NCBI GenBank assembly: GCA_965242925.1
Contig: CBDEUM010000038.1
Span: forward strand, 128,001-192,000
Length of the DNA: 64,000 bases
Reading direction: 5' to 3'
From: Roseibacillus sp.
GTDB taxonomy: Bacteria > Verrucomicrobiota > Verrucomicrobiia > Verrucomicrobiales > Akkermansiaceae
The position numbers and the translations under genes are program-made. Within the stretch, counting starts at the first letter, position 1. Every line of letters starts with the position of its first letter. This document shows positions 25,685-56,337 of the stretch, piece after piece. Under the pieces are notes generated by a model. It had not been told where the DNA came from, did no database searches, and worked only from the letters and a program-made list of their open reading frames with translations.

Positions 25685-26185
25685 TCAGGAGAATTGGGCC
25701 TCGATATGAGCAAGCACTCCCTGGCAACCATCCTCGATGAGATCCGCCACCAGCTCGAATCCCGAGGAGCCCCCATAGTAGGGATCAGGAACTTCGCTCG
25801 CCTCGTGGTTCTCACAGAAGTCGGTGAAAGGCTTCACCTTTGCACGGGCCGACGCATCGGGAGCGACAGAGAGGACTTCCTGCCGGTTGAAGTCGTCCAT
25901 GGTGAGGATGAGATCGAAATCCCCGAAGTCCTCCCGGGTGATCTGCCGGGCCGCCCCCCGCACGGTGAGGCCACGCCGCTCGAGGGTGTCCCGCATGCGG
26001 GTGTCGGGTGATTTGCCGGCATGGGCATCGATGGTTCCGGCCGAGTCGCATTCGATCCGGTGAGACAGAGTGCTCTCGGCCATGAGGTGACGGAAGACGT
26101 TTTCTCCGGCAGGAGAGCGGCAGATATTTCCCCAGCAGACGAAGAGGACGCGGAAGGTTCGATCATTCGGCACGCCAGGGACCAT
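25685..26185 (-). CDS. Low-molecular-weight protein-tyrosine phosphatase family
   Basis: CWGNICRS P-loop, DSAG, DPYYG. Confidence 0.93.
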   Translation of the reverse strand: MVPGVPNDRTFRVLFVCWGNICRSPAGENVFRHLMAESTLSHRIECDSAGTIDAHAGKSPDTRMRDTLERRGLTVRGAARQITREDFGDFDLILTMDDFNRQEVLSVAPDASARAKVKPFTDFCENHEASEVPDPYYGGSSGFELVADLIEDGCQGVLAHIEAQFS

Positions 26186-55821: not shown

Positions 55822-55980
55822 GCTGGGACTTAGCGAGTGTTGGCTACCAGGTCTTGAATGTCCATCTCCCACGAGAGTCCGATGAGGGGACTCCGCCGGG
55901 GCGCGGGATGTCATGGTTGCTTTGGGTGCCGGAGAAACACGGGTATTGACCCCGATTCAGCAGGAAAGTATTCGGCCTGC

Positions 55981-56337
55981 ATGTCCAAGGTCACGATCTA
56001 CCATAATCCGCACTGAGGCTCCTCCGTAAATGCCCTGGCGGTCGCCGAGGAACTGGGAGTGGAGCATGAGGTGATTCTCTACATCAAGACTCCGCCGGAC
56101 CGCGGGGTGCTGGAGTTGATCGTGGAAGGCCTCGAGGATCCGGTGGAGGACCTGGTGCGCAAGGATTCCAAGTTCAAGAAGCTGACGCTCGATCCCGCTG
56201 ACTATGTGGACAACCCGGAGGCGGTGATTGAAATTCTTCTCAAGCACAAGCAACTCCTGCAGCGGCCAGTCCTGGTGCGAGGGAGGAAGGCGATCATCGG
56301 GCGACCCAAGGGACGGATCCATGAGTTCCTTGGATAG
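55981..56337 (+). CDS. arsC: ArsC-family arsenate reductase with in-frame TGA at catalytic codon 12 (probable selenoprotein, 118 aa)
   Basis: MSKVTIYHNPH*GSSVNALAVAEELGVEHEVILYIKTPP...LVRKD...LLQRPVLV...IIGRP. TGA 56014-56016 aligns with ArsC Cys12 (YHNPxC) and is in frame with the track ORF 56059-56337. Confidence 0.85.
56018..56065 (+). promoter_or_regulatory. Candidate bacterial SECIS hairpin
   Basis: GCUCC/GGAGC lower stem; CCU-GGC[GGUC]GCC-G-AGG upper stem; GGU-containing apical loop starts 23 nt after the UGA. Folded by eye. Confidence 0.6.

Follow-up and report, generated by a model that had tools for sequence, protein, structure and literature searches.

An ArsC-family gene of Roseibacillus sp. 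carries an in-frame TGA at the very codon where its homologs specify the catalytic cysteine, and the locus thereby raises two questions, namely whether this codon is a stop or a site of selenocysteine (Sec) insertion, and whether the product is the arsenate reductase that its family name in the literature suggests. The window, by which we mean the whole stretch of DNA analyzed (64,000 nucleotides), corresponds to C38:128001-192000 in a 4.58-Mb assembly (G000) that is 89.9% complete. The frame opens with an ATG at 55981 on the forward strand, reaches the TGA at codon 12, and then stays open to a TAG at 56335-56337, just as the first-pass annotation had described it, with MSKVTIYHNPH preceding the TGA and the ArsC body following. 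With the UGA read as U, the product (hereafter Sec-ArsC) begins MSKVTIYHNPH-U-GSSV..., displays the motif H-N-P-H-U-G-S-S, and has no cysteine in any of its 118 residues. It passes the PF03960 profile (51.2 bits; cut-off 24), and its best family match is TIGR00014, at 90.2 bits with U read as C, which is below the curated cut-off of 106.05. An AlphaFold model (pLDDT 92.5) matches 3rdw, 3f0i, and E. coli ArsC with a TM score of ~0.8, and U12, R60 (LVRKD), R95 (QRP), and R108 (GRP) align with C12, R60, R94, and R107 of the E. coli enzyme, bearing out the three arginine counterparts that had been assigned to these motifs. That standard callers shorten such genes, as was also claimed, is evident from the ORF lister, which places the start past the TGA at GTG 56059, and from the NCBI entries for relatives, which are 101-aa stubs named "hypothetical" or "ArsC/Spx/MgsR."

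The gene stands alone in its orientation: the large gene upstream is transcribed away from it, and the downstream gene, which we take to encode a sulfatase-like protein, is transcribed toward it. No Shine-Dalgarno sequence precedes the ATG. A TTGAC-like hexamer lies 34 to 36 nt upstream of the start in 27/46 verrucomicrobial versus 1/34 acidimicrobial loci (counted over the best 80 of at least 226), which suggests a leaderless mRNA; hence, the mRNA from ATG 55981 is probably leaderless, with a promoter of its own (Table 1). A consensus promoter and terminator scan of the locus called neither, the TTGACC promoter included.

Table 1. Features of the Sec-ArsC locus (window coordinates) and CRTAC1-like UGA loci elsewhere in the G000 assembly (contig:strand and position)
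Feature	Position	Strand	Details
Predicted Sec-ArsC selenoprotein gene	55981..56337	+	PF03960, TIGR00014-like, U12, 118 aa
In-frame UGA, predicted Sec; catalytic Cys12 column, UxxS (U-G-S-S)	56014..56016	+	TGA kept, Cys in homologs
Predicted bacterial SECIS: upper stem 56033-39/56044-50, GGUC apical loop 56040-43	56033..56050	+	23 nt past UGA; conservation, covariation
Probable leaderless promoter	55946..55974	+	TTGACC 35 nt upstream of ATG, 17-nt spacer, weak -10 TATTCG
Predicted oxyanion-binding Arg triad stretch	56158..56304	+	R60 56158-60, R95 56263-65, R108 56302-04
CRTAC1-like UGA loci, forward strand	C12:+51079, C12:+89967, C13:+132387, C17:+49805, C20:+16543, C28:+4493, C29:+2749, C30:+361056, C34:+106360	+	L219-L228 set
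CRTAC1-like UGA loci, reverse strand	C22:-99699, C30:-153375, C37:-896	-	L219-L228 set

The first line of evidence on decoding comes from conservation of the TGA itself. Among 60 relatives examined, the 14 genomes with the gene (13 of 19 congeners plus G029) all have TGA at codon 12, and so do 80/80 loci in a contig search (the best 80 of at least 226 relatives, a set that overlaps with the 14 related carriers). By database labels these 80 comprise 46 loci from Verrucomicrobiota and 34 from Acidimicrobiia/Actinomycetota, that is, from marine Verrucomicrobiales and Acidimicrobiia; the close homologs among the matches listed are labelled Akkermansiaceae or Roseibacillus. In an 83-row alignment the UGA column is occupied by Cys in homologs and the Arg triad is invariant, thus furnishing the TGA/Cys pairs that the first-pass annotation had looked to homologs for. 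The 79 full-length loci of the best 80 display a median pS of 0.70 and pN of 0.15, and dN/dS between the window gene and the nearest locus is ~0.15; by these measures the gene is under purifying selection. The relaxed selection of a pseudogene, named earlier as a sign against read-through, is therefore not what these loci display, with TGA always kept and dN/dS this low.

The TGA is also consistent across data sets. Half or more of the stretch is contained in 14/24 sequence runs among the matches listed, most of them recorded as metagenomes from seawater or marine sources. In four runs compared, one contig from a separate study covers all of it with the TGA unchanged, and a metatranscriptome contig covering 55994-56183 likewise has the TGA unchanged, although presence in RNA contigs does not prove transcription. 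In the one raw-read run, depth at the TGA was <1. Since independent contigs agree at this position, an assembly error is ruled out as the source of the TGA. A plasmid search recovered distant matches alone, at <60% identity.

The second line of evidence is the hairpin downstream of the UGA, whose seven-position stem contains, in this genome, a single C-A mismatch. In the published bSECIS model (PMC13188914), as far as the source was available, the loop is 3 to 9 nt with a G in its first two positions, the stem 4 to 16 bp, the spacing 16 to 37 nt, and the MFE at most -7.5 kcal/mol. The Sec-ArsC hairpin agrees with these values (a 4-nt GGUC loop, 6/7 pairs, 23 nt, and -7.8 kcal/mol over 56025-65), the energy being marginal. 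Relative to shuffled sequences, its folding energy is not above chance (z of -0.44 to +1.48 in 4/4 folds), and we dropped it as proof of a SECIS for want of this signal; an Rfam search of the region returned two chance hits and no SECIS match. Hence, the part of the earlier claim concerning a GGUC loop 23 nt downstream and bacterial SECIS geometry stands, whereas the hairpin taken alone is no more stable than shuffles.

It is across homologs that the hairpin rises above chance. The four lowest synonymous entropies among 27 four-fold codons, 0 to 0.70 bits, belong to codons 20, 21, 18, and 22, all within the SECIS, against 1.16 to 1.91 bits for the remaining 23; further, the Glu23 codon is GAG in 66/66. 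In a set of 49 sequences (the window and those 48 of the best 80 loci whose starts share one locus position), the stem positions are paired in 97.1% of cells, versus 26 to 69% for slid-stem controls. Seven two-sided changes are spread over three stem pairs, a score reached by 0/500 shuffles, though kinship inflates such counts. These frozen synonymous sites and covarying pairs argue for a selected RNA structure. A GGUC also follows the UGA in this genome's selD (~32 nt), in a formate dehydrogenase-like gene (~18 nt), and in 12 CRTAC1-like genes (~17 nt).

The third line of evidence concerns the decoding apparatus, which the first-pass annotation had expected elsewhere in the genome. In G000 there is a tRNA-Sec(UCA), the selC product, at C30:304340, and both selB and selD score over cut-off, the latter with an in-frame TGA of its own that makes it Sec-containing. 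SelA was found in G000 neither by two profile models nor by tblastn; the gene is present in 18/19 congeners, in 14/14 related carriers, and in 32/34 acidimicrobial carriers. The 13- to 20-kb surroundings of selA from three congeners, which presumably include pheS, pheT, gcvP, and gcvT, find only paralog-level matches in G000. With this region missing as a block and selA present in the related carriers, the absence fits an assembly gap. A Sec route free of SelA was considered and set aside, SepSecS giving nothing over cut-off in G000, 18/19 congeners having selA, and the gap being sufficient. Long ORFs of G000 end in TGA more often than in any other stop (985/2038); thus, the code is standard, and a UGA=Trp code is rejected. 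Taking together the invariant TGA, the conserved and covarying SECIS, purifying selection, and selB/selC/selD, the earlier proposal of Sec read-through is upheld, and these comparisons strongly support the prediction that this is a true selenoprotein gene whose UGA is read as Sec at the catalytic position. We regard it as close to certain that SelB on the GGUC hairpin would bring Sec-tRNA(Sec) to UGA-12, allowing synthesis of a 118-aa enzyme with the ArsC fold.

Selenoproteins of this kind are known from environmental surveys, as had been noted at the outset: 14 Sargasso "arsenate reductase" UxxS selenoproteins were predicted in 2005 (PMC1088965), and 77 GOS "ArsC 1" sequences were subsequently reported (PMC2398784). 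In the available portions of two further papers (PMC9312934 and PMC13188914), the UxxS ArsC family is assigned to TIGR00014/COG1393, with MBT3519430.1 as its representative and a largely uncharacterized function. Sec-ArsC belongs to this UxxS "arsenate reductase/ArsC 1" family predicted in 2005, an assignment made by domain and UxxS motif. With "ArsC 1" (COG1393/pfam03960/TIGR00014) it shares PF03960, TIGR00014 as the best match, Sec at the catalytic Cys, UxxS, a SECIS inside the ORF, and marine provenance. However, there are at least two UxxS lineages, one with U-G/N-S-S-x, to which Sec-ArsC belongs, and another with U-G/S-K-S-R and a different hairpin; the 2005 set could be either. "Verruco" is absent from the main text of the surveys PMC13188914, PMC9312934, PMC13326102, and PMC5029168, so far as that text was available, and the part of the BSepDB supplement examined has no Verrucomicrobia or arsenate rows, which cannot show absence.

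Among characterized proteins, E. coli ArsC (R773/K-12; 1i9d, 1jzw) resembles Sec-ArsC in fold (TM 0.78 to 0.82), H8, S15, the Arg triad, and a nucleophile at position 12; it differs in sequence (34% identity), in having Cys in place of Sec, in a C-terminal extension that Sec-ArsC lacks, at position 16, which is variable in the Sec proteins, and in its ars operon and glutathione supply, for neither of which were genes found with Sec-ArsC. The YfgD type (E. coli YfgD; 3rdw, 3f0i; V. cholerae VC2165) provides the best sequence and fold matches, with equal length, a stand-alone gene, and intact residues. Identity to YfgD is 38%, higher than to E. coli ArsC; unlike Sec-ArsC, the YfgD type has Cys-S-K-S-R and falls in a separate clade. 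The "Arsenate reductase 2"/UxxC form (NF041106) and the CxxC YffB/Spx/MgsR proteins belong to the same Pfam family, but Sec-ArsC lacks the second Cys and is only 16 to 27% identical to them; NF041106 gave no match to it at an E value of 0.01.

The residues expected of an arsenate reductase are all in place. H8, S15, R60, R95, R108, and P109 are kept in 79/79 full-length loci (of the best 80 of at least 226), and Asn9 in only 38/79; judged by the roles given to ArsC active-site residues in PMC5593903, as far as that source was available, the active site is intact. The first-pass annotation took Val in place of the usual Arg at position 16 as a hint of a different substrate. This is weakly founded, as position 16 varies freely among the best 80 loci (K 41, T 12, R 7, V 5, D 5, Q 5, E 4, N 1) and has no diagnostic value; the doubt about arsenate arises from genome context and not from Val16.

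That context was surveyed in 49 carriers, 15 verrucomicrobial (with G000) and 34 acidimicrobial, represented by incomplete MAGs from organisms related to one another. Of these, 6/49 score over cut-off for acr3 (2/15 verrucomicrobial and 4/34 acidimicrobial) and 0/49 for arsB, the latter with a weak control in that the model also failed on E. coli; tblastn of E. coli ArsB against G000 found nothing, and arsM was over cut-off in 0/5 carriers. This export search covered acr3 and arsB. No ars genes were recognized in the 40 commonest neighbor clusters of the best 80 of at least 226 loci, and no neighbor is conserved beyond 15/80 of the best loci except the gene's own antisense frame. In the carrier G029, an arsR-acr3-LMWP-type arsC cluster lies apart from the Sec-ArsC gene. 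The window itself also encodes, at 25718-26149 on the reverse strand, an LMWPc-family protein with CWGNICRS, which looks like a tyrosine phosphatase and not a thioredoxin-type ArsC.

The thiol context is also at variance with the classic enzyme. GshB, gshA, and GCS2 are over cut-off in 0/15 verrucomicrobial carriers, and across 61 genomes they are found in 0/61, 2/61, and 1/61, respectively, the positives all being non-carriers; this search covered the verrucomicrobial genomes. In the portion of PMC6282198 available, Verrucomicrobia are without a documented or predicted low-molecular-weight thiol. Bacillithiol was rejected as a donor, bshC not being found in G000. The "glutaredoxin-dependent" label of the first-pass annotation thus fails to carry over, because the glutathione synthesis genes were not found in the carriers. 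The sole glutaredoxin-family match in G000, at C29:415432-415599 (L208), has a CGWS motif and is a candidate donor.

A single PF03960 gene is present in 44 of the 61 genomes, and no genome has two; in 30 PF03960 loci inspected, non-carriers have the CxxC YffB/Spx type or, in G030, UxxC. The latter (L188, G030:C4:10597-10908) looks like a Sec form of the YffB/Spx-type paralog, similar to "ArsC 2," and comes from another genus of the same family. Sec-ArsC would thus seem to fill a single ArsC-family slot that the CxxC YffB/Spx type holds in other Verrucomicrobiales.

By analogy to E. coli ArsC, we propose that the Sec12 selenolate would lie where helix 13-25 begins, next to His8 and Ser15, and would attack a tetrahedral oxyanion, or an oxidized S/Se/As-oxo group, held by Arg60, Arg95, and Arg108. 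As Sec-ArsC has no second Cys, its recycling must depend on an external thiol, most likely from a thioredoxin-type system or the CGWS glutaredoxin-like protein and not glutathione. The role would most likely be housekeeping redox repair or oxyanion reduction, as opposed to ArsC-plus-efflux resistance. We accordingly lean, with something better than an even chance, toward Sec-ArsC being a housekeeping, glutathione-independent selenolate oxidoreductase that acts outside the classic arsenic-resistance route.

The strongest competitor, to which we assign roughly one chance in three, retains the same selenoprotein as a true arsenate reductase, dealing with low arsenate in phosphate-poor seawater by means of a non-glutathione donor, with arsenite leaving by another channel or pump. 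The full arsenate-binding residue set in 79/79 loci, the fold shared with E. coli ArsC at TM about 0.8, the best family match to TIGR00014, the marine holders, and the name in the literature are all in keeping with it, and arsenate may well remain a substrate, to judge from the arsenate-reduction residues kept throughout. Set against these are the lack of ars context with acr3 in so few carriers, the separate LMWP-type ArsC beside acr3 in G029, the sub-threshold TIGR00014 score, and, in the portion of PMC9601151 available, V. cholerae VC2165, which makes no arsenite despite retaining the Cys and the arginines. A redox-sensing regulator resembling Spx/MgsR, with Sec as a switch and no catalytic turnover, is improbable: Sec-ArsC does take the one PF03960 slot that in other genera belongs to CxxC proteins of the Spx/YffB type, and its fold is similar to Spx (TM 0.8), but it lacks CxxC, shares 21 to 27% identity with the verrucomicrobial CxxC paralogs, scores below the TIGR01617 and NF002459 cut-offs (TIGR01617 42.1 versus 75.05; Spx 27.7 versus 123), and possesses the R60/R108/H8/S15 sets that are missing in Spx according to the available part of PMC5593903. 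Least probable, and largely refuted, is a TGA that is a real stop (in a pseudogene or a 92- to 101-aa truncated protein), a sequencing error, or a Trp codon, for which the missing selA, the ordinary hairpin stability, the raw-read depth, and UGA=Trp in some Verrucomicrobiota (PMC13462651, as far as available) are outweighed by TGA in every one of the best 80 homologs across two phyla, residues conserved on both sides of it, the frozen SECIS, agreeing independent contigs, TGA as the commonest stop, and the absence of the selA region as a block.

The history of Sec-ArsC can be partly traced. All 81 Sec rows fall into a single clade among Cys proteins (SH-aLRT 90 in a quick 166-row tree and 98 in a 43-row tree), and one cluster of these Cys proteins is labelled Actinomycetota. 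The verrucomicrobial copies come together in a 47-row clade (SH-aLRT 86) along with a single acidimicrobial row, and among the Acidimicrobiia there is one row labelled Chthoniobacterales. With identity of at least 70% across two phyla, transfer between Verrucomicrobiota and Acidimicrobiia, in either direction, is likely to have occurred. The "Chthoniobacterales" record (L119) shares acidimicrobial neighbors and might be mis-binned; the Acidimicrobiales copy among verrucomicrobial ones (L108) might reflect a back-transfer. The second UxxS lineage (L229-L267), placed among YfgD-like proteins, comes from marine metagenomes; 80 metagenome loci include 25 with TGA, 48 with Cys, and 7 unparsed, and some gene callers have taken its UGA as Trp (P0075, P0082). 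Two independent Sec origins are not established, as trees split the lineages (SH-aLRT 99) but by the AU test a single clade is not rejected (p 0.188).

A bolder scenario, which we offer tentatively and which as a whole is more apt to be wrong than right, assigns the UxxS subfamily no role in arsenic chemistry at all. In this view, actinobacterial Cys homologs gave rise to a glutathione-independent Sec oxidoreductase, which was then exchanged between Acidimicrobiia and marine Verrucomicrobiales with the SECIS held fixed; in the latter it would have displaced the CxxC YffB/Spx paralog. It would be recycled by a novel thiol system and would stand for one of two or more separate Cys-to-Sec conversions among YfgD-like ArsC proteins.

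Several other observations bear on Sec use in this genome. Seven further loci (C22:+63568, C14:-407258, C13:-45116, C14:-245880, C22:+23539, C14:+614227, and C34:-19637) we take to be likely selenoproteins, and presumably they comprise a formate dehydrogenase alpha (U-H-A-P), a peroxiredoxin with TxxU, SelW/Rdx and AhpD-like proteins with CxxU, two exported Trx-like UxxC proteins, and one more exported UxxC protein. A genome-wide TGA/hairpin scan yielded 902 candidates, mostly false, and missed the Sec-ArsC gene, so it is no census of the selenoproteome. Adjoining selB and convergent with it (L021:5110-8151, on C34) is a gene for a ~1,000-aa protein with three near-identical 316-aa repeats, which we assume to be VCBS-like. 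Near-identical genes lie on different contigs (C27:41339 and C39:856; C12/C17; C28/C37), which suggests that the assembly holds duplicated or strain-mixed contigs.

The 12 CRTAC1-like loci, all outside the window (Table 1), encode proteins of 700 to 1,400 aa; in each, an in-frame TGA corresponds to the U of a D-L-U-S-x-x-W-R motif and is followed by GGUC 17 nt on. Pfam searches of 4 of the 12 identified FG-GAP, ASPIC-UnbV, AhpC-TSA, and TPR domains. Two of the 12 look like near-duplicates. The domain names are absent from the available part of a 2026 catalogue review of bacterial selenoproteins, and among the matches listed in a literature search on the CRTAC1-like family there was no bacterial selenoprotein paper; these genes would be more novel than the Sec-ArsC gene.

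For 20 years the UxxS ArsC family has stood as a prediction, and the available portions of the reviews PMC9312934 and PMC13188914 demonstrate no function for it. The present findings correct an annotation, as the database entries for Sec-ArsC proteins are 101-aa stubs that lack the catalytic residue, and they point to marine Akkermansiaceae as active selenocysteine users. They also counsel caution, in that Sec-ArsC genes in marine metagenomes should not be counted as arsenic resistance, and "glutaredoxin-dependent arsenate reductase" probably misdescribes the role of Sec-ArsC in these hosts. Being small and predicted to fold well, in hosts largely without glutathione genes and arsenite pumps, Sec-ArsC would offer a clean test case for the YfgD-like ArsC paralogs.
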